IMG/VR virus record: IMGVR_UViG_2529292882_000007
Length of the DNA stretch: 49,713 bases
DNA from: a virus
Lineage: Duplodnaviria > Heunggongvirae > Uroviricota > Caudoviricetes
Reading direction: 5' to 3' (one strand)
The translations under genes were made by a program, and so were the position numbers. Positions 17,125 to 37,396 of this stretch are shown one piece after another (the stretch's first letter is position 1; each line of letters starts with the position of its first letter). The notes under the pieces were generated by a model, which saw only the letters and a list, made by a program, of their open reading frames with translations, was not told where the DNA came from and ran no database searches.

Positions 17125-17390
17125 TCATCATCTCCTGCCGCACATACAACCTCACAAAAAACATCAGCGGAATGTTTCTCCTTGAACGAATGACGCTCAA
17201 AACCGCACTCAATATCAGGCGCAAAAACATCCACCACATACGGTCTTTCAGAATGTTTGTTTTCCCAACGATAAGCCGTAGTGACGTTGAAATGTTTTAA
17301 CGCTTCACGGAACTCAACGCTGCCCGTCAGGTTTTTTGAGGTCAGGTATTGCAGGAGGTTTTTTACTACTTCACGGTCTTGTACTTTCAT
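17121..17390 (-). CDS. Hypothetical protein, first gene after repeated promoter/leader cassette copy 1
   Basis: ATG at 17390 preceded by GGAGATAACCCG leader shared with copy 3. Confidence 0.5.
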   Translation of the reverse strand: MKVQDREVVKNLLQYLTSKNLTGSVEFREALKHFNVTTAYRWENKHSERPYVVDVFAPDIECGFERHSFKEKHSADVFCEVVCAAGDDE

Positions 17391-17508
17391 CGGGTTATCT
17401 CCGGTTTAACCAGGGCGGGTATCGCTCGGTTTCGGGTATAACCTTAGGAAATTTTTTCCCACCCGTAAAGCACTTTTTATATAAATCTATAATTATATAA
17501 TTCTATGA
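17387..17508 (-). promoter_or_regulatory. Repeated promoter/5' leader cassette, copy 1
   Basis: About 96 percent identical to 35121..35242; contains TATATAATTATATA-type AT palindrome and identical RBS. Confidence 0.6.
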
Positions 17509-18398: not shown

Positions 18399-18474
18399 TG
18401 GTGGCCCCTACCGGATTTGAACCGATGACCGTGCGATTATGAGTCGCCTGCTCTAACCACTGAGCTAAGGGGCC
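18399..18474 (-). tRNA. tRNA, anticodon CAU (ileX-like, Ile2/Met type), CCA encoded
   Basis: 76-nt sequence GGCCCCTTAGCTCAGTGGTTAGAGCAGGCGACTCATAATCGC...GGTTCAAATCC...ACCA on minus strand. Confidence 0.9.
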
Positions 18475-23865: not shown

Positions 23866-24933
23866 TCAGGCTTTTAATAGCGATTCTTTCAGATATCGGG
23901 CATCAGCCAGGGCGTTTGGAGTAATCTTGCGAACCCATGCATTACGAGTTGGACTCCACTTAAAGGCGCGTGATTTAAGCAGCGAACGAATGTTTGCCTC
24001 TGGTTTGCCAGGGAAATAAAACAGGATGCGGTTATCCTCTGGATCTATCTCCATAGAAAAGCCGTCGTATTCTTCGCGCTGTGATCCTGTTACAGACTTG
24101 ACCGATTCAAGCTCTTTAATACGGCTCTGTAGTCGTTTGATTTCGGCGTTATTGTTACTCAGTGAGTATGAAGGAAAGCCAATGTGCCCACAGAAATCTC
24201 CGGCGAGTAACTCTTTGGCTTCGCTTTCAGTAAACTCAAGGTCAATTAATGCGGAAAGCTGCTGTAATTGGTCTTTTTTGTATTTGCGAATAGCCTTATT
24301 TGCGGCCTTCATTTTGATGTGTGACTTCATGCAGCCTTGCAGCTTACGAAGCAACTTAAATAGCGCATCAGGATCATCAGACGAAACTCCATTACGGCCG
24401 ACACCTGCGGCTTTGCTTTCGTAGTACGATGCTCTGCTTTCACACTCAACAAACGATTTTCTGAATAACGCATCAGCTTTAGACAAACGGCGGCGATGGC
24501 CTTTCGCGCTATAATGGTCAACTAAAATCGGCTGGCCTAACGGGATCACATCCAACAGTTCATGCGCTCGCTTATGCGCCACCGCACCTTCTTTTCTGGC
24601 TTTTTCTGCACGAGCAATATATCGGGCAAGACGCGCGTTCTGGCGTTCCTGATAGGTATTTACGTAATCATCTCCGCGCTGCTGCTGTTCAAGCCATGCT
24701 TTGCGCAGCTTTTCTGTTACGTCTACCAACTCCGCAGGGATACAACCTGTTTGGGATTCATAAGAGTGACCATCCTCATAAAGACGTCCATCGTCTTCAA
24801 CAAAGAAAAAGGTGTCGTGCTCATCGCTTTTGACCATACGGCCATTAACATGACGTAATCTATAGCCAGTATCAGTGCTTAACAGGCTGTCAGGGTTGTT
24901 GATCCAGTCAGAAATAATTACTTGTTTATTCAT
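23866..24933 (-). CDS. Hypothetical protein (DUF3560-like by recollection), first gene after cassette copy 2
   Basis: Start ATG 24933 directly after shared leader; ORF-track start at 25083 runs through the leader. Confidence 0.45.
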   Translation of the reverse strand: MNKQVIISDWINNPDSLLSTDTGYRLRHVNGRMVKSDEHDTFFFVEDDGRLYEDGHSYESQTGCIPAELVDVTEKLRKAWLEQQQRGDDYVNTYQERQNARLARYIARAEKARKEGAVAHKRAHELLDVIPLGQPILVDHYSAKGHRRRLSKADALFRKSFVECESRASYYESKAAGVGRNGVSSDDPDALFKLLRKLQGCMKSHIKMKAANKAIRKYKKDQLQQLSALIDLEFTESEAKELLAGDFCGHIGFPSYSLSNNNAEIKRLQSRIKELESVKSVTGSQREEYDGFSMEIDPEDNRILFYFPGKPEANIRSLLKSRAFKWSPTRNAWVRKITPNALADARYLKESLLKA

Positions 24934-24939
24934 CAGATT

Positions 24940-25041
24940 TCTCCGGTTTAACCAGGGCGGGTATCGCTCGGTTTCGGGTATAACCTTAGGAAATTTTTTC
25001 CCACCTGTAAAGCACTTTTTATATAAATCTATAATTATATA
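24940..25041 (-). promoter_or_regulatory. Repeated promoter/5' leader cassette, copy 2 (immediately downstream of Q-like gene)
   Basis: Shares about 100 bp with copies 1 and 3. Confidence 0.6.
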
Positions 25042-25103
25042 TTTATAGATTTTCCGATGTTCCCGGTGCCTACAAATCACCAAAACAGCTCAAAATGACA
25101 CTT

Positions 25104-25481
25104 TTACTCTCTTCTCTTTTTCAAGTAGTCGACAACATACGCCCTGGCCTTTGCCAGCTTCCGGCGATACTGTCTGAGACTAAGAGAAAGGGCGTGGGCT
25201 TTATCAATATGCGGTGCATTTATGTCGAGGCCCCGAATCTCCCACGCCCCGTATTCAATTCGGACAACCAGCGCCGCAGTCTCATCAACTACAGTGAGGG
25301 CCGTCACCGCTCCCTCTATACTGGTTTCCAGTGAGTCATTTGGTGCGCCGCCCCCTCCGGTAAACTGGCAGCGCGTAACCATCATCATTTCTAACATCGA
25401 CGCGAAACCGCTACGGGCGTTGCAGCCATTGCGCACCCACAGCGCCCATAGCTCAAACAAGCTATCCAGATCGCGTCTCAC
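25104..25481 (-). CDS. Putative antitermination protein Q-like late regulator
   Basis: 125 aa; W-x-W and Cys-containing pattern reminiscent of small Q-like antiterminators; position before late promoter-like cassette. Confidence 0.4.
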   Translation of the reverse strand: MRRDLDSLFELWALWVRNGCNARSGFASMLEMMMVTRCQFTGGGGAPNDSLETSIEGAVTALTVVDETAALVVRIEYGAWEIRGLDINAPHIDKAHALSLSLRQYRRKLAKARAYVVDYLKKRRE

Positions 25482-27627: not shown

Positions 27628-28284
27628 ATGAAAAGCAACGACGAGAACATCAAGAAAGAAATAGGTCTGCGCATTCAGACTCTACGGAAACAATCCGGCA
27701 TGACTGCCGGAGATCTCCAGCAAGTCACTGGAATAGGCTTAAGCACCTTGCAGAACTATGAGGCCGGATTAAGACAACCATCTATACCTGCCATCAAGAA
27801 AATCGCGCACGCCCTGAAAGCATCAGCGCCTTATATCGCGTGCTTAACAGATAACCCGTTCCCACCCCAGAATACTAACGCTCCTGTTATTCCTGGGCTT
27901 GTAGCTATAAAAAATGACATAGCATCGCACGCCGGAGAAAAGCCAGTGCTGGCGATAGAACAGGAGATTCTACGAAGCAAGAACATCAACCCATCGTCTC
28001 TGTCAGTTCTCCAGAGCAACGATGAGTTAATGTCACCAACAATATCCCCTGGCTCCCAAGTCCTGATTAATACAGACGATACAGAGATTCATGAGGGGAT
28101 CTATGCCCTTGAAGACAGAAATGGCCTGGTTGTTTTGAGGCACTGTAGAGTCATACCGGGTGACAATGCTGTTATGCTGTCAACCGAAAGGGATGCTGAA
28201 ATGAACACTAAGCATCTGAATAACGAGGAATTTAAGCGTTATAAAGTTCTTGGCCGCGTAGTTAGTGTTGTCAACTGGTTATGA
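27628..28284 (+). CDS. CI-like repressor (HTH-XRE plus S24/LexA-like C-terminal domain)
   Basis: N-terminal HTH; C-terminal region with MSP-type Ser motif. Confidence 0.65.
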   Translation: MKSNDENIKKEIGLRIQTLRKQSGMTAGDLQQVTGIGLSTLQNYEAGLRQPSIPAIKKIAHALKASAPYIACLTDNPFPPQNTNAPVIPGLVAIKNDIASHAGEKPVLAIEQEILRSKNINPSSLSVLQSNDELMSPTISPGSQVLINTDDTEIHEGIYALEDRNGLVVLRHCRVIPGDNAVMLSTERDAEMNTKHLNNEEFKRYKVLGRVVSVVNWL

Positions 28285-28751: not shown

Positions 28752-28775
28752 CTGCAAGCGGGCTAACGCCCGCTT

Positions 28776-28878
28776 ATATGATTATAGATTTATATAATTA
28801 TATAAAACGCTTTTCATCCGCCAAAAAGTTGGTTATGCTTACCTCGTTCTATAAATATAGATTTATAGAATTATATAA
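28776..28878. repeat. AT-rich palindromic repeat cluster upstream of parA (candidate centromere/operator)
   Basis: Two blocks containing TATATAATTATATA-like motifs. Confidence 0.45.
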
Positions 28879-28886
28879 CCAAACAC

Positions 28887-29555
28887 ATGGAGTCTCGACA
28901 AATGACTATCTCTGTAGGTATTTTCAACGGAAAAGGCGGCGTAACCAAATCAACAATTGCCCGTGCTTTAGCAGTTGCTTATGCAAAGGCCGGCTGGAAT
29001 GTATGCCTGATCGATATGGATGTGCTTAACGGAACGGTAACGCGTTGGGTACAACGCAGAATGGCCAACAATATCGAACCAGCAATCGCGGCACAGCCGT
29101 GCGGCACACCATCACAAGTCCAGAAAATCATCGAATCAGAAGTATACGACCTGGTTATCGTAGATGGCGGTGCCTACGCATCTGAATCAGTACCGAAGCT
29201 CTCTGAATTTCTGGATATGGTTATTTTGCCAACCAGATTCTCTACCGATGACCTGGAAACCACCGTTAACACAGCTCACGGCATCGTTAAAAAGGGTGTA
29301 CCAATCAAGAAAATTTGCATGGTGTTTTCCGGCGCGGCTGAAAACGAAGCTGACTATATTGAAGCCCAAGAGTACCTGGCTAATACGCCATACTTTGTTG
29401 TCGATAAGTACATTCCCCACAAGCCAGCTCTGAGCAAAGCTCAGGATAAGGGCTTAAGCCTCATTGAGTGCTCATACGTTGCGCCACGCAAAAAGGCAGA
29501 CGACGTTATTCAGGGGATTATCAACCAGCTTGAGGCTCTGACTACTGCCGCGTAA
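28887..29555 (+). CDS. ParA-family partition ATPase (small type Ib, ParF-like); probable start at 28902
   Basis: Deviant Walker A FNGKGGVTKST. Confidence 0.8.
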   Translation: MESRQMTISVGIFNGKGGVTKSTIARALAVAYAKAGWNVCLIDMDVLNGTVTRWVQRRMANNIEPAIAAQPCGTPSQVQKIIESEVYDLVIVDGGAYASESVPKLSEFLDMVILPTRFSTDDLETTVNTAHGIVKKGVPIKKICMVFSGAAENEADYIEAQEYLANTPYFVVDKYIPHKPALSKAQDKGLSLIECSYVAPRKKADDVIQGIINQLEALTTAA

Positions 29556-29598
29556 TATATAATTATAGTTTTATAGATTTATATAAGAGGGGATACAC

Positions 29599-29847
29599 AT
29601 GGCCGCACCATCAAAACCACCAAAGAAGAACAGCAAAGGCGTACCGCCATCGATCGAACAACCGCAGGTTTTCGACCCGACTGAAACGCCAACCAGAACC
29701 AAATCAGGTGGGGCACAAATGGCGTTTAACGTCGACCCTGAATTTAAACGCGAGTACAAAACGTTCGCCAGCTCAATGGATATGTCATTGAAAGAAGTGC
29801 TGACAAAATCTTTTGAGTTACTCAAGGCTCAATACAACCAGAAGTAA
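29599..29847 (+). CDS. Putative ParG-like ribbon-helix-helix centromere-binding protein
   Basis: 82 aa, basic/Pro-rich N-terminal tail, RHH-like C-terminal region; immediately downstream of parA. Confidence 0.45.
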   Translation: MAAPSKPPKKNSKGVPPSIEQPQVFDPTETPTRTKSGGAQMAFNVDPEFKREYKTFASSMDMSLKEVLTKSFELLKAQYNQK

Positions 29848-30069: not shown

Positions 30070-30091
30070 AAAAAAGGCCCCCGAAGGGGCC
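30070..30091. terminator. Hairpin terminator between convergent small genes
   Basis: GGCCCC cgaa GGGGCC stem with flanking A-run/T-run. Confidence 0.55.
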
Positions 30092-30097
30092 TAATCG

Positions 30098-30220
30098 CTA
30101 CTTGCTGCTAATGTTTATCGTCACATTCAGAGCGTTATCAGTAATCTTCCAACCCTCCCCATGTGGCGTAAACAAAGCTCCAGTAACAACGATAAAAATA
30201 CACATGTAGTATTTTTTCAT
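30098..30220 (-). CDS. Small hydrophobic peptide (40 aa)
   Basis: MKKYYMCIFIVVTGALF...; AAGGG SD upstream of ATG 30220; strong terminator downstream. Confidence 0.35.
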   Translation of the reverse strand: MKKYYMCIFIVVTGALFTPHGEGWKITDNALNVTINISSK

Positions 30221-30606
30221 TGTGTGGCCCTTACAGGCCGTTTCACGGCATCCCCACCGACGAAAATGACGCGAGAGCAAGCACGCTGTTTGTGCCTGCG
30301 TGGTACGGCAAGTGGATAATCCTTTCCTGAAAGTCAGTGCCCGGGTGCGAATCGGCGGAAAGGCCCCAAGCCATATTACACGTCATACCCTTCATAATGA
30401 AGGAATAAAAAACGCTTTTATTACATAAGATTACACGTAAATAAGTTAAAAACCTTCATTTTGCATGAGCTAATGAGCTAAATTTTTTTATATGAATAGT
30501 GGACTATTCACCTCAGTTGGGTAAGAATGTAGTTGCTGTTTGTGCTTGCGTGGTTGTATTTATACAACAACGTAATGCTGAAAGGACCGCGAATCCGATC
30601 AGCACG

Positions 30607-31479: not shown

Positions 31480-31720
31480 ATCCCGCCGTATTGACATGAA
31501 TGCGCCATTGGTGGACACTTTCCGAGCCGTAGCAAAATCTACGGTCGGGATTAGCCTCCTGAATAACACGATGGCGCATACCGCGTTAGCGGTTTTTTTT
31601 ATGCGTAGAGCACTGTTACGCCCAAATTATGGTGGGTCGTACAGGGGCGGAGAAATCCGCGCCGGTTCGTCATTGTGTCCGGTAAGGCTAACCCTGTACG
31701 GCTCACCACCATTTGATTAG
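31480..31720 (+). ncRNA. Candidate structured regulatory RNA/leader upstream of the small-ORF/antirepressor operon
   Basis: TTGACA at 31491..31496; hairpin plus T8 at 31580..31600; long-range stem 31631..31646 with 31692..31710. Confidence 0.3.
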
Positions 31721-31762
31721 CCTCGAATGGCGGTGATAGTTCCATATACTGGAGATATCACA

Positions 31763-31954
31763 ATGACAAACCTACCCCATGACTATTACGTCAACCTCGT
31801 AAAGATCCTTCTCAAGAAAGCCTCATACGCCGATAAATTCCGCCTGGCTGAAATCATCGAGCGCGAAGCTATGCGCATCGCCAGCAACGATAACGCTGTT
31901 TCTGACGCAAAAATCTCCCTCGTAACCAAAGTAGTTATGGGAGGTGCAAAATGA
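31763..31954 (+). CDS. Small protein upstream of antirepressor (Icd-like position)
   Basis: ATG 31763 with GGAG SD; 63 aa; stop overlaps antirepressor start. Confidence 0.4.
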   Translation: MTNLPHDYYVNLVKILLKKASYADKFRLAEIIEREAMRIASNDNAVSDAKISLVTKVVMGGAK

Positions 31955-33102
31955 AAACGCTTCCGATCCTTAACACCCTACAGCCTATCCTGCATAATCA
32001 GATTCCAGTAATCACAACTGAGCTACTCGCCCGCCTTTATGGAACAGAAGCAATCCGTATACAGCAAAATCACCATGAAAATAAAACTCGGTTCATTGAG
32101 GGGAAGCACTTCTTTAAAGCTGTTGGTGATGAACTCAAAAATTTGCGACTAGTTTTAAACGAGTCACAAAATGAAGTGCAAATTTCCCCCAAAACTCGCT
32201 CTCTCATCCTCTGGACAGAACGCGGGGCTGCACGTCATGCCAAAATGCTTGAAACTAACCAAGCGTGGGATGTGTTCGAACGGCTGGAAGACAGCTATTT
32301 CAACCAGAACGCGCAAACGGCCGCGACCGTTACCGTCTCGCCAGACAATGCTCGTGAGGTTGTCGATACGCTCAACGCCAAACCGATGTTTTACATTAAG
32401 GTGTGCAACAACGAGCCACTCACAACCTCAGCCGATGTTGCCCAGGCATTCAGCACCACAAACAATTCCATCGTTATGGCCATCGATGCGTTACGCATTC
32501 CTCGCACGGCTGCGGCGCGTCACTTCTTTAAAGAACAACGACCGCTGGAAGGAAGCGACCGCGAAATAACAATCTATCGCATGACAAAAGACGGATTTAC
32601 CTTGCTCATGGAGAGCATCGACGGACCAGGCGTAAAAGATATCAAGCTGGCCTACATTGAGGCCTTTAACGCTATCAGCAGCGTGTTAAAAACACAGTAC
32701 GAGCGTGATCTGGCTAAACGACTGTACCAGGAAAAAACGATTATCCGCGCGGCAACAGAGCACAATCGGCTACTAACGGAACCGAACTACAGGAAGGAAC
32801 TAATCAAGGAGTTTGACAAGGCAACGGGGAAAACCAAAGCGGCGCTAAGTCTGCCAGCAATGACTCAGGAAAATGTGATATCAGCCTTACTTCTTGATCT
32901 GCTCAGAAACGCCAGAGCACTGATCAGCTTTGACGAAAACCTGAATCCTCAGCTCAAGCTACTACCACCGACAGGCAAAGTAGTCGACCAGGCAGATCAC
33001 AACAGCATACTCAGCGTACTGGATGCAAACCTACCAGCCAGGACACTACAGGAACTGATAAAGATATCTGCGGATAAACTGGCCGCAGGTGCAAAACCAT
33101 AA
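31951..33102 (+). CDS. Putative antirepressor (Ant-like N-terminal domain)
   Basis: 383 aa; N-terminal region ITTELLARLYGTE...GKHFFKAVG...LWTERGAARHAKMLETNQAW. Confidence 0.45.
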   Translation: MKTLPILNTLQPILHNQIPVITTELLARLYGTEAIRIQQNHHENKTRFIEGKHFFKAVGDELKNLRLVLNESQNEVQISPKTRSLILWTERGAARHAKMLETNQAWDVFERLEDSYFNQNAQTAATVTVSPDNAREVVDTLNAKPMFYIKVCNNEPLTTSADVAQAFSTTNNSIVMAIDALRIPRTAAARHFFKEQRPLEGSDREITIYRMTKDGFTLLMESIDGPGVKDIKLAYIEAFNAISSVLKTQYERDLAKRLYQEKTIIRAATEHNRLLTEPNYRKELIKEFDKATGKTKAALSLPAMTQENVISALLLDLLRNARALISFDENLNPQLKLLPPTGKVVDQADHNSILSVLDANLPARTLQELIKISADKLAAGAKP

Positions 33103-33136: not shown

Positions 33137-33772
33137 TTAATATTTCGGTGTAATCAGTAGCGACACGTGCCCTGATTTGTCACGAGAAACGTAATACTCG
33201 CCTCTCTTAGTCTTAAACTCAGCTTTCTGCGTATCAGATTTAACAATCTGCTCTAACTGCGCGATCACTGTGTCTCTATCACTTGATGCATCCAAGACTT
33301 CAACAGCTACGGCCATAGAAAGCAAGGAATCAGAGCTAGGCTTAGATACTCGCCATAATAACTCTGAAATCTTCCCATCCTTATCAACTCTAGCTCGACC
33401 GTTAACAGATGAGTTGATGGCAAATTCAACTGTGTTGTTACCTTGTTTAACTGACTTAATTCTTATAGCGGAGGTGGATTTTCCTGATGTAGCGATACCT
33501 TCAAGGTCATCATTATATAGCTGCTTAAACTTATCTACGGTCACACCATCGAAAGCAGCTCCGGTAGTAGCCGTAGTGCCGGAGTCTTCTGGTATCAAGG
33601 CCACAGCCGCAAGAGTATTAACAACAACAAAAGTAGCAATCCCAAGAAACCCACTCACTAAAACAGCTTTGAACTTACTACCAGAAGATGAGCCACATTG
33701 TTTCCGATATGCACCACGAACTACGAAGAAACACAAAATCAGGCTAATAATAAACGCCACCAGCATCCCCAT
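33137..33772 (-). CDS. Membrane-anchored protein with periplasmic domain
   Basis: Two N-terminal TM segments. Confidence 0.45.
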   Translation of the reverse strand: MGMLVAFIISLILCFFVVRGAYRKQCGSSSGSKFKAVLVSGFLGIATFVVVNTLAAVALIPEDSGTTATTGAAFDGVTVDKFKQLYNDDLEGIATSGKSTSAIRIKSVKQGNNTVEFAINSSVNGRARVDKDGKISELLWRVSKPSSDSLLSMAVAVEVLDASSDRDTVIAQLEQIVKSDTQKAEFKTKRGEYYVSRDKSGHVSLLITPKY

Positions 33773-34336
33773 AGAAATCTCCTTTTAGATATAAGGGTAA
33801 AGCAATATCGTATTGGATCTTCCTTTAGACACAACCCCCCCTCCCCCCATACAGGGTGCCCTTTACCGGAGTTCCGGCCCCTTCTCAAAAGCATCAAAAA
33901 AAGCTCGAGATCGAGTACCGGAACTCATGCCACCAGATAGCTCCACATCGTTTCCAATGCTTCGCCGCCGTGTGCGCCCTGTGGCCCACAATCATGCCAT
34001 TGGTCGTCTGATATACCTTCTTCTGCTCATTGAGCACAGGCGAGTTGTCGCACTCCTGCCTTTCTCAGACTCGACTTAGTTTAGATCGCTGTTCCTAGCT
34101 TGCGTCAGCACACTTTCCCCTTGTACGCATACCCGCGCGCCACTCCGCCCAAAAACACCGAACCCAACGAAGTGGCAAAGACAACGACGCGAGCGTGAGT
34201 CTGAAACAGGCACCAGTAAAAAAGGGGTTGCAGGCGCAAAAAGATTTGATTATCTTTAGACGCAAGAAAGCCGCCCCAATCAAGAGGTGTCTTTTTAAAT
34301 CCAGCCTACCAAGCAAGATTTAAATTTCAGACTGAA

Positions 34337-34362
34337 AACCGCCCGGCAAGGCGGTTTTTGTC
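34337..34362 (+). terminator. Intrinsic terminator, plus-strand orientation
   Basis: ACCGCC cggcaa GGCGGT stem followed by TTTTTGTCTTTC. Confidence 0.5.
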
Positions 34363-34407: not shown

Positions 34408-34680
34408 TCATTTGATCCCTTGTTCCAATTCTGACGACACTTTAACCTTTTCCCATACAAGGGTTTGCAGCCTTAACAGAATCGCATCTTTATCAAGGTG
34501 TGAAAGATCCTTAACCATATCGTCAAACGACAGAACGCGAATGGCCATCTCAATGACCCTCGGCGGCTCCCCCTTCTCATATCGCTTATATGTAGCCAAC
34601 GATATCCCAAATTCTTCGGCGGCTCGCTCCTGCGTCCAGTTCATCCCACGACGCCATAATTTCAATTCATAACCCGTCAT
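34408..34680 (-). CDS. HTH-XRE DNA-binding protein (Aca-like position)
   Basis: Start ATG 34680 with GAGGAGGA SD; HTH-like WTQERAAEEFGISLATYKRYEKG. Confidence 0.55.
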   Translation of the reverse strand: MTGYELKLWRRGMNWTQERAAEEFGISLATYKRYEKGEPPRVIEMAIRVLSFDDMVKDLSHLDKDAILLRLQTLVWEKVKVSSELEQGIK

Positions 34681-34743
34681 AGCATCCTCCTCGCACAATA
34701 TTAACACTCGCAAAGTGTCAAAATGACACTTTGCGCATTGTGT

Positions 34744-35124
34744 TTACTTAACGAGGAATAAAAATGGTTTATTGTTCGGCGGTGTAATCGGGGCTGGCTC
34801 GCTTTTGCTCATGCGATCAGTGTACCAGGCCAGCTCCTTGTCAAAGTAAGCCTGATTAAAATAGGCCATGAATGTAGTTTCAAATCCATAACGACCGCTA
34901 ATACGCAGCATCTGATTGCCGTTCTCTGTTTCCAGATATACCTGGGCACGTTCCTGATTCTCCTTCAGCCAGGTTAAAGCCTCATCGCACGAGGACACAC
35001 GATACTCATCATCGTAGCCGTCATCGATGCGGCTTGAAGAAGAACGGCAAATCACGCCAACAGAACCAGCCAGGATAGTTTGAATTTTAAGGAAAGCGTT
35101 TTTGCGGATTTTAATCATGCTCAT
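34744..35124 (-). CDS. Hypothetical protein, first gene after cassette copy 3
   Basis: ATG 35124 after GGAGATAACCCG leader. Confidence 0.5.
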   Translation of the reverse strand: MSMIKIRKNAFLKIQTILAGSVGVICRSSSSRIDDGYDDEYRVSSCDEALTWLKENQERAQVYLETENGNQMLRISGRYGFETTFMAYFNQAYFDKELAWYTDRMSKSEPAPITPPNNKPFLFLVK

Positions 35125-35242
35125 CGGGTTATCTCCGGTTTAACCAGGGCGGGTATCGCTCGGTTTCGGGTATAACCATAGGAATTTTTTTCCCACCTGT
35201 AAAGCACTTTTTATATAAATATATAATTATATAATTCTATGA
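35121..35242 (-). promoter_or_regulatory. Repeated promoter/5' leader cassette, copy 3
   Basis: About 96 percent identical to 17387..17508. Confidence 0.6.
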
Positions 35243-35244
35243 AC

Positions 35245-35273
35245 ACAAAAAAGCCCCTTTGCAACAGGGGCTT
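35245..35273 (-). terminator. Intrinsic terminator after toxin-antitoxin operon
   Basis: AAGCCCCT ttgcaac AGGGGCTT stem with U-run on minus transcript. Confidence 0.6.
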
Positions 35274-35287
35274 ATCATTCGTTCAGA

Positions 35288-35587
35288 TCAGATGTTAAAC
35301 GCTATTCGTTTTCCTGTGGGAAGCTCAACATCCAAGCTTAATTTGCCTCCCATAGCTTCAACGTAACGCTTTAATGTCGCCAGCTTTAAATCATTTCCGC
35401 GCTGCTCCAGCTTTGTTACTGCTGGCTGGCTTATACCCATCGCCTCAGCAACCTGTTTTTGTGATAACTGGAGTTCTTCACGCATCATCTGCAAGCCGAC
35501 CTCAAGAATCATCTCATCTGCCATTTCTTTAATTCGCGCCTGGCTTTCAGGTGAACGGCTGGCAATCACCTCATCTAATGTTCTCAT
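35288..35587 (-). CDS. HTH-XRE antitoxin (HigA-like)
   Basis: HTH-like LQLSQKQVAEAMGISQPAVTKLE; downstream of and overlapping toxin gene. Confidence 0.55.
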   Translation of the reverse strand: MRTLDEVIASRSPESQARIKEMADEMILEVGLQMMREELQLSQKQVAEAMGISQPAVTKLEQRGNDLKLATLKRYVEAMGGKLSLDVELPTGKRIAFNI

Positions 35588-35940
35588 TACTTGCTCTCCA
35601 GTGTGTTCAGATGTGCTGCAAACTCATCCTCAGCTATACGCACCAGTTTTTCATAAAACCGTTTATCGTTACTTTTGTCTCCTGCACAAAGAACGATGGC
35701 CCGGCGAATCGGATCGAACGCATAAAAGGCTCTTATCGGACGGCCAGAAAACTGAACGCGAAGCTCTTTCATATTTTTGTACCGAGAACCTTTTACGGTA
35801 TCGGCATATGGCCTGGGTAACTCAGGTCCGTAAACCTGTAGCTTTTTCAAATCAGCCAAAACCTTTTCCTGAAGAGCGTCTTCTTGCTCATTTAGCCAGT
35901 CGTCAAATCGCTGGCTAAAAAGTACCGTCCACATGCTCAA
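35587..35940 (-). CDS. RelE/HigB-like toxin (Gp49-like addiction module killer)
   Basis: 117 aa; gene order toxin then antitoxin with 1-nt overlap. Confidence 0.5.
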   Translation of the reverse strand: MSMWTVLFSQRFDDWLNEQEDALQEKVLADLKKLQVYGPELPRPYADTVKGSRYKNMKELRVQFSGRPIRAFYAFDPIRRAIVLCAGDKSNDKRFYEKLVRIAEDEFAAHLNTLESK

Positions 35941-36178
35941 TCCTATAACCTGTAGTTTATATCACTAACTATATAACCTGTGGGTTATAATTTCAAGAAA
36001 AACGGGGCTATTTAACATAATGGACGTTATCGGCACCACCGGATCACCGTTCATTGTCGGATCTAAAAAATCCGCTCAAAAGATCATGTTTTCCTGGGCG
36101 TTTTCCACCGTTTTTTATGTTGCTTATTTGTTAATGAAATCTCGTTTTCAGTTTCGCCTCATTTTCGACGCGAAAGCC

Positions 36179-36469
36179 CTATTTTTGTGACTTTACTCCT
36201 GGCATATGGACTTCCCAGCGACGAATCCCCATAGCTGCGCAAAAATCAGCCACATAATTCAATCCCGCCCATTCGCGGATACCACCACGGGCTTTTTCAA
36301 TGAAAACGGCAATCCCTTTTTTATTGAGAGCAAAAAGCCGCCAGCTTTTTGTCACTTCGTCCTGGGTAGCCACAACACAAGTGAAAGCTCCCATGCGATA
36401 CAGGTCCAAGAACTCTTTGCGTGTTTTGCGTACAAGTTCCATAACAAACCTCATATTTGCATGTTTCAA
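36179..36469 (-). CDS. Hypothetical protein
   Basis: 96 aa; 4-nt overlap with upstream gene. Confidence 0.35.
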   Translation of the reverse strand: MKHANMRFVMELVRKTRKEFLDLYRMGAFTCVVATQDEVTKSWRLFALNKKGIAVFIEKARGGIREWAGLNYVADFCAAMGIRRWEVHMPGVKSQK

Positions 36470-36765
36470 ACATCTGTTTTGTTATCAATGAAGATTAACC
36501 CTAACCCAGCGAAGTAACACAGCAGCGCCCAGGCTGCATACGGAATGCTGGATCTGGATGTGGACTCCTTTAACATCTGCCAGTTGCGAACATTGCGACT
36601 ATCTTTTAAGCCAAGTTTTTTGGCCAACTGCGAGCCGCTCATTCCGGTCAGGCCAATGACTGCCCGAACTTCTCCACATGTAGGAGATTCCCATTCATCC
36701 GCTTTTTTTAAACAAGCCGGATTCAACATTTTTAAAACAGTATCTTTATCCATAACCATCTCCAT
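36466..36765 (-). CDS. Hypothetical protein, possible DNA-binding
   Basis: 99 aa; HTH-like GMSGSQLAKKLGLKDSRNVRNWQ. Confidence 0.35.
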   Translation of the reverse strand: MEMVMDKDTVLKMLNPACLKKADEWESPTCGEVRAVIGLTGMSGSQLAKKLGLKDSRNVRNWQMLKESTSRSSIPYAAWALLCYFAGLGLIFIDNKTDV

Positions 36766-36779
36766 TTATTATATCTACG

Positions 36780-37396
36780 ATGGTAGGAAATCTTTTCCTA
36801 CGTGGCAATAGAAATTTACTACATTGCGTATAAGACAAGTTTTCTATGTCTAATAGGAAATGATGTTTCTTACGTTTTATCGCGTTCTGATGGCTACTGT
36901 GTGCGTATTTATCGACGTTTATTGATAAGGCTCGCCCCTTCCTCCTGCAAAGCCCGGCCGTAGGCCTTATTTCGGCCTTATATAAATTGATTTTGTATAG
37001 TTCGAAACGCGCCGTTTCGAAAAGGATGATCAGGCTGCTCCATGCCTCCGGCAAGTGCCGGAGGAGGTATATTTGAGCGTAGCGACTCGAACCGGCGCGA
37101 GCTTTAGCTCGCTGCAAGGGCGAACATATTCACAGGCAAAGCCTGCGTAAGTTAAATAAAGAAAGTTTTAATAAAAGAAAGTGATTTTGCATTTATTTGT
37201 TTAGTGCATCTATTATAAAAAACCATTTGCATATACATATCAAAACTGTGGATAACTTTATTAGCCGATGCCTGTAAAGGCGATATTTTTGCTGTGTTCA
37301 GGTTTAGAGAAAATTAATTTAGATTGTTTTTTGAACAGATATTTTATTGCGACGTAGATAATCCTCCGGTAAAACCGGATTCATCATTCAGGTGGG
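36780..37396. other. Putative replication origin region downstream of repA
   Basis: DnaA box TGTGGATAA at 37247..37255; AT-rich 37130..37330; palindromes at 37001..37021, 37045..37064, 37097..37112. Confidence 0.45.

Follow-up and report, generated by a model that had tools for sequence, protein, structure and literature searches.

A KorC-type promoter cassette like those of IncP-1 kil-kor operons precedes an orphan 126-codon gene in a myovirus-type phage-plasmid

Introduction

The klcA and kle operons of the conjugative IncP-1 plasmids are repressed by KorA and KorC, and klcA, which encodes an anti-restriction protein, is the most strongly zygotically induced gene of RP4 (approximately 120- to 220-fold) (PMC7314908). 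Kor repressors autoregulate, and kleA, kleE, klcA, and klcB harm Escherichia coli when derepressed (PMC11997246); in RA3, KorC is the main global regulator (PMC7414963). Here, we report the analysis of a locus in IMG/VR virus record IMGVR_UViG_2529292882_000007 (Caudoviricetes; 49,713 nucleotides [nt], the whole of which is referred to as the window), a myovirus-type phage-plasmid. At this locus, the third copy of a promoter cassette precedes a gene for an orphan protein of 126 amino acids (aa) (gene126) and a gene for a 90-aa helix-turn-helix (HTH) protein (HTH90). A first-pass annotation, made from the sequence, had taken this order for an anti-CRISPR (acr-aca-like) organization, with the HTH protein as autorepressor and the 126-aa protein as a candidate anti-defense effector.

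A second point of comparison is phage-plasmid P1, in which the C1 regulon consists of operators scattered over many unlinked operons and a small C1-repressed inactivator, Coi, is encoded next to c1.

Results

The layout of cassette, 126-aa gene, and small HTH-XRE gene was borne out, with all elements present. The order, entirely on the minus strand, is terminator-like hairpin, cassette copy 3, gene126, a 60-nt spacer, HTH90, and a GC-rich hairpin. The genes, the cassettes, and the parts of cassette 3 are located as follows.

34744-35124, minus strand: gene126, predicted 126-aa soluble alpha/beta protein, phrog_8090 family
34408-34680, minus strand: HTH90, 90-aa XRE-family HTH protein, with Shine-Dalgarno (SD) sequence GAGGAGGA at 34685-34692
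36466-36765, minus strand: KorC homolog, 99 aa, 1.3 kb upstream of cassette 3
36780-36808, minus strand: korC-homolog promoter TTGCCA-17-TACCAT, whose spacer contains the perfect dyad TAGGAAAAGATTTCCTA (core, 36786-36798)
35121-35242, minus strand: cassette copy 3, one of three 122-nt copies
35175-35203, minus strand: cassette-3 promoter TTTACA-17-TATGGT, kept in all three copies and in relatives
35179-35195, minus strand: KorC-type operator of cassette 3, a 17-bp imperfect dyad TGGGAAAAAAATTCCTA, situated between the -35 and the -10 and extending into the initial 2 nt of the latter
35125-35174, minus strand: conserved leader of about 50 nt, ending in CCGGAGATAACCCGATG (SD plus start codon) and homologous to the leader end of IncP-1 klcA/kleA
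35203-35250, minus strand: three periodic AT-rich repeats of 8 bp (TTATATAA / TTATAGAT type), directly before the -35
17387-17508, minus strand: cassette copy 1, heading an operon of small genes, ParB/Srx, terminase, head, and tail genes
24929-25050, minus strand: cassette copy 2, heading an operon that runs from DUF3560 (primase-like) to Ead/Ea22-like, holin, and endolysin genes

The three cassette copies in the window (89 to 97% identity) span the AT-rich repeats, promoter, leader, and start codon, and the ATG of gene126 has the same position within the cassette as the start codons behind copies 1 and 2. The cassette-3 promoter, previously called strong, matched 9 of 12 consensus positions and is therefore better described as moderate. 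The KorC-type dyad is the sole dyad in the cassette. In the form GGAAA-N3-TTTCC (extended, TAGGAAA-N3-TTTCCTA), it is found between the -35 and the -10 of all three cassettes and of the korC-homolog promoter, with one mismatch in cassette 3 and full matches in the other three. Seven matches to GGAAA-N3-TTTCC were found in the window against 2.5 expected, a number reached in 0 of 100 shuffles. The same four-site pattern is present in a Salmonella relative (L017), whose three cassette copies are identical among themselves yet differ from those of the window, which indicates that the cassette undergoes concerted evolution within each element. A structured leader RNA was rejected; one small invariant hairpin and no covariation were found in the leader.

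The 99-aa protein encoded upstream shares 51% identity over 80 aa with KorC of IncP-1 plasmid pAKD15 (BLASTP, E = 3e-23), matches annotated IncP-1 KorC genes at E values of 9e-14 and 5e-12 (tblastn), and is labeled "putative korC" by one depositor. The klcAp and kleAp promoters of pAKD15 read AAAGTGCTTGAC-(N3-4)-TAGGRCATTTTGCCCTA-ATAT...ACCGGAGAAAGTCCGATG, and the window cassette reads AAAGTGCTTTAC-AGG-TGGGAAAAAATTTCCTA-AGGT...AACCGGAGATAACCCGATG; TAGGRCATTTTGCCCTA takes the same spacer position as the window dyad, and the -35 context (AAAGTGCTTGACA) and leader end (ACCGGAGAAAGTCCGATG) are common to both. An alignment (A8) covered the window, the Salmonella relative, two IncP-1 promoters, and the cassettes of a metagenomic lineage (L007) and of a phage-plasmid from Vibrio campbellii (L010); invariant or near-invariant columns were found in the -35, in each of the two operator arms, and at the leader end CCGGAGA..CGATG. 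Because promoter, operator position, and leader align with klcAp/kleAp and a KorC homolog is encoded on the element, the cassette is, as judged by sequence, a phage-plasmid version of the kil-kor promoters that KorC represses, and the KorC homolog is likely the repressor of the cassette promoters.

The resemblance to the IncP-1 kil-kor system (RK2/RP4, pAKD15) thus covers the encoded KorC homolog, a 17-bp TAGG..N..CCTA dyad in the -35/-10 spacer that overlaps the -10, a homologous -35 context (AAAGTGCTTkACA) and leader end, multiple near-identical promoter copies per element, an operator in the repressor's own promoter, a putative second operator just 5' of the -35, and a cargo of small genes without known function near rep/par. 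There are also differences. The host here is a myovirus-type phage-plasmid, whereas IncP-1 plasmids are conjugative; the operator half-site is GGAAA instead of GGGCA; AT-rich 8-bp repeats stand in for the KorA operator; of the three promoter copies, two serve replication, lysis, and virion operons; and the cargo, gene126, is unrelated to KlcA, KleE, and KleF (hhalign probabilities of <1%).

In the klcA/kleA promoters of IncP-1 plasmids, the -35 is immediately preceded by GTTTAGCTAAA, the KorA operator; in alignment A8, the AT-rich repeats of the window have this position. The window contains 15 copies of these 8-bp repeats at eight loci, including both flanks of parA, the stretch before every cassette, and two more promoter-like sites.

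28774-28886 and 29555-29594: repeat arrays flanking parA (28887-29555), with six other sites besides

The gene that follows parA (29599-29847) encodes an 82-aa protein with a disordered basic N terminus and a C-terminal strand-helix-helix pattern; it had no match in Pfam or NCBIfam, and by eye it is reminiscent of ParG/omega-type ribbon-helix-helix centromere binders. The AT-rich repeats are probably bound by a second plasmid-encoded repressor, for which this protein is the most plausible candidate; in IncP-1, the partition operon encodes KorA/KorB.

The gene126 family was found in a phage-plasmid-like or plasmid context near rep or partition genes in every lineage examined. In six lineages (enteric, L007, L010, L019, Pontibacterium L020, and Vibrio parahaemolyticus L021), the family gene adjoins a korC homolog whose product matches IncP-1 KorC at E values of 1e-15 to 1e-20, and a 17-bp TAGG..CCTA dyad lies about 70 nt upstream of the family gene, with 2 to 4 copies per locus. 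The korC homolog directly abuts the family gene in L007, L010, and L019; in the window, the two are separated by a higB/higA-like pair that has been inserted behind the korC operon and ahead of cassette 3.

35288-35940: higB/higA-like pair, Gp49 toxin and HTH_3 antitoxin; separate promoter, TTGAAA-17-TATAGT (35968-35996)
35251-35273, minus strand: terminator-like hairpin, an 8-bp stem followed by TTTTGTGTTC, which ends the upstream higB/higA-like pair and marks the start of the gene126 unit

In comparison with the Salmonella relative, gene126 (66% aa identity) and HTH90 (70%) stand out as one block of divergence, and the sequences on either side are nearly identical. Similar divergence was seen for KorC (72%), for the CI-like repressor (65%), and for the antirepressor (56%), and RepA (86%), HigBA (90%), and ParA (96%) are more conserved. 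Against a further relative, L006, KorC is 89% identical and gene126 71%. Both genes of the unit are true coding genes under purifying selection, since, in comparisons with relatives, the proportion of nonsynonymous differences (pN, about 0.2) in gene126 is far below that of synonymous ones (pS, about 0.78; synonymous sites saturated) and the corresponding rate ratio (dN/dS) of HTH90 is about 0.2.

No Pfam, NCBIfam, PADLOC, or PDB match was found for the gene126 protein. It falls in phrog_8090, a family without assigned function, and across these databases and PHROGs no functional assignment and no metabolic or structural family emerged, in keeping with the earlier expectation. It showed no similarity to any solved Acr protein, the hidden Markov model of the family matched no open reading frame (ORF) in the pAKD15, R64, and pOXA-48 loci, and neither the accession nor the phrog identifiers returned anything from the searchable literature. 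Among 5.8 billion proteins, a word-indexed search recovered 17 relatives, each of them enterobacterial; with an exhaustive profile search, the number rose to 39 cluster representatives at 50% identity, 28 of them with E values of <1e-10. The family shares an N-terminal domain of about 100 residues (IRKNAxKKI ... GII ... DDSxD ... WL ... G.Y.F), followed by an acidic or Pro-rich linker and a short hydrophobic C-terminal strand (FLFLV in the clade of the window; NVVSLCAYRQR in others). A conserved hydrophobic tail placed behind a Pro-rich linker in this way is suggestive of a tethered peptide ligand. An AlphaFold model built on a deeper alignment was confident for residues 1 to 105 (mean predicted local distance difference test score, 86) and gave a beta-alpha-beta-beta-alpha-beta-beta-beta-alpha domain; on this model, the product is a soluble alpha/beta domain of about 100 residues with a flexible tail. 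A lipoprotein or signal-peptide protein was rejected (Cys26 is unconserved, being Ser in most relatives, and the N terminus is a confident strand plus helix), as were a DNA mimic (net charge, 0; pI, 6.3) and a known fold, the structure matches in BFVD being uncharacterized phage proteins only.

Two family members carry sub-threshold LPD25 domains, which have been reported from polyvalent proteins of conjugative elements only. In two homologs (P0018 and P0022), the gene126-family domain is fused to a domain of about 76 aa (...KxFxSLxxxExxYxxWRGI...) that forms a separate cassette-driven gene in L007 (2471-2701) and in Vibrio L010 (8989-9222); fusion in the one case and shared cassette control in the other suggest that the two proteins act together. 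A 96-aa protein of the window was considered as a homolog of this fusion partner and rejected (no alignment).

HTH90 matches HTH_3 (E = 6e-7) and HTH_31, and the 101-aa ORF with a TTG start in the ORF list is an upstream extension of the 90-aa gene. As the first-pass annotation had noted, the gene has a strong SD. The features between and behind the two genes are as follows.

34709-34735, minus strand: perfect 12+12 palindrome CGCAAAGTGTCA-TTT-TGACACTTTGCG between gene126 and HTH90, single copy in the window
34698-34706, minus strand: extended -10-like element TGTTAATAT (TGnTAAAAT in relatives), kept in L003, L005, and L006; putative HTH90 promoter
34333-34360, no strand assigned: GC-rich hairpin 3' of HTH90, scored on the plus strand; the minus-strand stem is followed by TTTT only

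The GC-rich hairpin, almost unchanged in sequence among relatives, is the probable terminator that closes the unit. Across four lineages, the palindrome keeps the core AAAGTRTCA/TGAYACTTT while its outer four to five pairs covary, and the recognition helix of HTH90 is invariant among relatives. As RNA, the palindrome folds into a hairpin of -22 kcal/mol (z score, -4.5). It is a candidate HTH90 operator, a candidate RNA hairpin attenuating read-through, or both. With this palindrome and the conserved extended -10 between them, gene126 and HTH90 need not be a single operon; a hairpin limiting read-through combined with an autoregulated HTH90 promoter is the simplest reading.

Nothing like the HTH90-associated dyad was found in the cassette, and further HTH90 operators in the window were rejected, as matches were at chance level except for one 15-nt identity upstream of cassette 2. 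This sequence, TCAAAATGACACTTT (25090-25104), equals the right half plus spacer of the palindrome and lies at the stop codon of the gene at 25104-25481, about 45 nt upstream of the cassette. It is missing at the equivalent place in the Salmonella relative; HTH90 may bind it weakly as a secondary site, or the identity may be coincidental, a matter of descent. HTH90 as a KorC paralog was rejected as well (no alignment).

Relatives of HTH90 (35 to 53% identity) occur in 3,782 plasmid records, of which 3,303 are conjugative. The R64 relative belongs to the leading region, where it follows a 65-aa orphan gene; the one in pOXA-48 has a 153-aa orphan gene upstream and a "restriction endonuclease" gene downstream. 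Others stand alone in lytic podoviruses, between terminase genes, and in other plasmids. Downstream of the gene126-family gene, an HTH90-type HTH was absent in L007, L008, L010, and L019. In L006 (6155-7580), an IS110-family transposase interrupts the HTH gene behind codon 43, and the 125-aa gene126 homolog is intact.

The first 95 nt of the window are the same as the last 95 nt, which makes it a circular element of approximately 49.6 kb. Nonmobilizable plasmids of about 48 kb from E. coli (including ATCC 25922), Klebsiella, and Escherichia albertii are 98 to 99% identical to the window, and three Yersinia pestis myophages (vB_YpM_39, 41, and 44) match it as closely as the plasmids do. The RefSeq annotation of the ATCC 25922 plasmid lists an IncFII-type RepA, ParA, a complete head, contractile-tail, and lysis gene set, and an invertase, and on this combination the element was classified as a myovirus-type phage-plasmid. 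The name pSLy3 was rejected as a family name, because pSLy3 is a member of the SSU5 supergroup and a different element. Further regulatory loci are as follows.

27628-28284: CI-like S24 repressor
31526-33102: P1/P7-like immI arrangement, comprising an isrK-like RNA (31526-31599), a C4 antisense RNA (31625-31713), a 75-aa ORF, and an ORF6N/Rha antirepressor (31951-33102); RNAs assigned with Rfam

Action of the C4 antisense RNA on the cassette leader was rejected, no complementarity of 7 nt or more being found. The element also has a full-length match to the ryfA small RNA (30070-30368; 134.6 bits) and a tRNA gene (18402-18474), both from Rfam. Just 3' of the HTH90 terminator, an ORF-free stretch of about 590 bp (33780-34330) is about 91% identical to Salmonella relatives, and the genes on its flanks are only 45 to 70% identical at the protein level. 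It had no significant Rfam match and RNA fold z scores of merely -2.3 and -2.0; it could be an origin, a long noncoding RNA, or a recombination anchor. The 211-aa predicted membrane protein encoded at 33137-33772 (phrog_23465) is 45% identical to its Salmonella counterpart, and its gene is replaced by a 189-bp ORF in E. coli ATCC 25922; the antirepressor gene and HTH90 are thus separated by a variable locus.

Discussion

With moderate confidence, we favor an explanation in which KorC-type repression of a klcAp-like promoter restricts gene126 to transient expression upon entry or derepression, and in which gene126 has a host-directed or establishment function. gene126 would be a member of a KorC-type (kil-kor-like) regulon on a phage-plasmid. 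The KorC homolog would bind the dyad between the -35 and -10 of cassette 3, and the AT-rich repeats would be bound by a second repressor, for which the 82-aa product of the gene behind parA is the most plausible candidate. In the resident plasmid state, the promoter would be shut; it would fire transiently when naked DNA enters a repressor-free cell, or when the regulon is derepressed along with the two cassette-bearing lytic operons. The gene126 product would then serve in establishment or act on the host, anti-defense included, a best guess that follows from its holding the slot of klcA and the kle genes in RK2. HTH90 would be a lineage-specific add-on with its own extended -10 promoter and palindromic operator or hairpin, probably regulating itself and not the cassette. 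From the homology of promoter, operator position, and KorC and from the synteny in six lineages, we infer the repression, the timing of expression, and the activity of the protein.

Several observations weigh against this explanation. The binder of the dyad is deduced solely from homology and the autoregulation pattern, and with one mismatch in the dyad, repression of cassette 3 may be leaky. Family members in L008 and L009 have no detectable KorC; L008 has a repeated promoter cassette of its own with a different palindrome, another copy of which drives an ArdC-N gene (PF08401, E = 2e-13). In Enterobacteriaceae, Vibrio, and Pontibacterium alike, gene126 is conserved in synteny as a near-core gene, which suits an element-intrinsic role at least as well as counter-defense, and it could be a plain lytic-cycle gene, as the same cassette heads replication, lysis, and virion operons. 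The protein is also not acidic, as DNA-mimic anti-restriction proteins are, and its lack of relationship to KlcA, KleE, and KleF points the same way.

One alternative is that gene126 is a component of a switch, either an antagonist or modulator of the KorC-like repressor (compare Coi of P1), giving positive feedback, or a rep-proximal replication or maintenance factor. The strict synteny with korC and the rep gene across six lineages, the confinement of the family to this element type, and the fast divergence that KorC, gene126, and HTH90 share with the CI-like repressor and the Rha antirepressor all fit, as does the control of lytic operons by the same operator type. P1 offers the analogy: it too is a phage-plasmid with one operator type before several unlinked operons and, by position and control, a comparable small operator-controlled gene near the repressor gene, and the window has an immI module like that of P1, with C4 antisense RNA and antirepressor. 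The repressor here is KorC-like, however, and the operators are symmetric 17-mers, unlike in the C1 system. Coevolution of gene126 with KorC is not tight, given the 89% against 71% identity to L006, and some family members lack a detectable KorC. We regard this alternative as unlikely.

The acr-aca proposal, with gene126 as an anti-CRISPR or anti-defense effector and HTH90 as an Aca-like autorepressor damping the cassette after entry, found support for its gene order but not for its autorepressor. A small orphan gene and a small HTH gene on the same strand, 60 nt apart on a mobile element, with expression that is presumably strong and early and then repressor damped, are what such loci look like; gene126 matches no known family, and the two genes codiverge as an allelic block (66 and 70%, against 86 to 96% for RepA, HigBA, and ParA). 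The prevalence of HTH90 relatives on conjugative plasmids and their leading-region position in R64 fit as well, as do the ArdC-N gene in the corresponding slot of L008 and the two family members fused to sub-threshold LPD25. The operator evidence points elsewhere: two lytic operons have the same cassette, and it holds a KorC-type dyad, found also in the promoter of the korC homolog, so that the likely repressor is encoded upstream, whereas the HTH90-type palindrome lies after gene126. The HTH gene is not conserved with the family, being missing beside distant members and IS disrupted in L006, and its solitary relatives in lytic podoviruses mark the HTH90 family as generic. Among PDB sequences at E values of ≤1, neither Aca1 nor Aca2 was recovered, and the top matches were MqsA and HipB (E of about 0.06 to 0.1). 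HTH90 is thus unlikely to be the cassette autorepressor, and we consider the proposal as a whole improbable. An anti-defense role for gene126 is nonetheless plausible by analogy, its regulatory context being that of the anti-restriction gene klcA in IncP-1 plasmids.

Just as improbable is a toxic "kil"-type gene126 neutralized by HTH90 as an antitoxin made in excess from its own promoter and strong SD, which would parallel toxin-first type II toxin-antitoxin pairs (higBA and mqsRA, with a genuine such pair, the higBA-like one, directly upstream) and would agree with the antitoxin HTHs that top the weak matches of HTH90, with the codivergence of the two genes, and with the toxicity of derepressed KorC-regulated RK2 genes (PMC11997246), but gene126 matches no toxin family, the putative operator is not 5' of the toxin candidate, and the pairing is not obligatory, with no such HTH downstream in L007, L008, L010, and L019 and an intact 125-aa gene beside the cut HTH gene of L006.

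Under the favored KorC-type regulation, the generic acr-aca-like guess gives way to a specific circuit in which a KorC homolog would act on four promoters through a defined 17-bp operator. Myovirus-type phage-plasmids of Enterobacteriaceae, Vibrio, and relatives also carry the promoter module of the IncP-1 kil-kor system, and in the enteric lineage this module additionally precedes the replication/lysis and virion operons. A plasmid-type kil-kor circuit thus seems to gate the lytic program, beside the CI-like S24 repressor and the P1-like immI module. The kil-kor circuit itself is well known, but the searchable literature gave no description of such a circuit in phage-plasmids, of its reach into lytic operons, or of the gene126 cargo family.

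More tentatively, and with some doubt, phrog_8090 might represent a new entry-induced phage-plasmid effector, either a KorC-gated counter-defense or host-takeover protein or a Coi-like KorC antagonist that makes the kil-kor circuit a viral lysis/lysogeny switch. As the corresponding RK2 slot holds klcA and toxic kle genes, gene126 is a reasonable candidate for an anti-defense or establishment role. Elements of this kind, approximately 48 kb in size, occur commonly in clinical E. coli, Salmonella, and Klebsiella, and they infect Yersinia pestis; if either effector reading is true, a regulatory module of conjugative plasmids would have been co-opted in them to run a phage life cycle.

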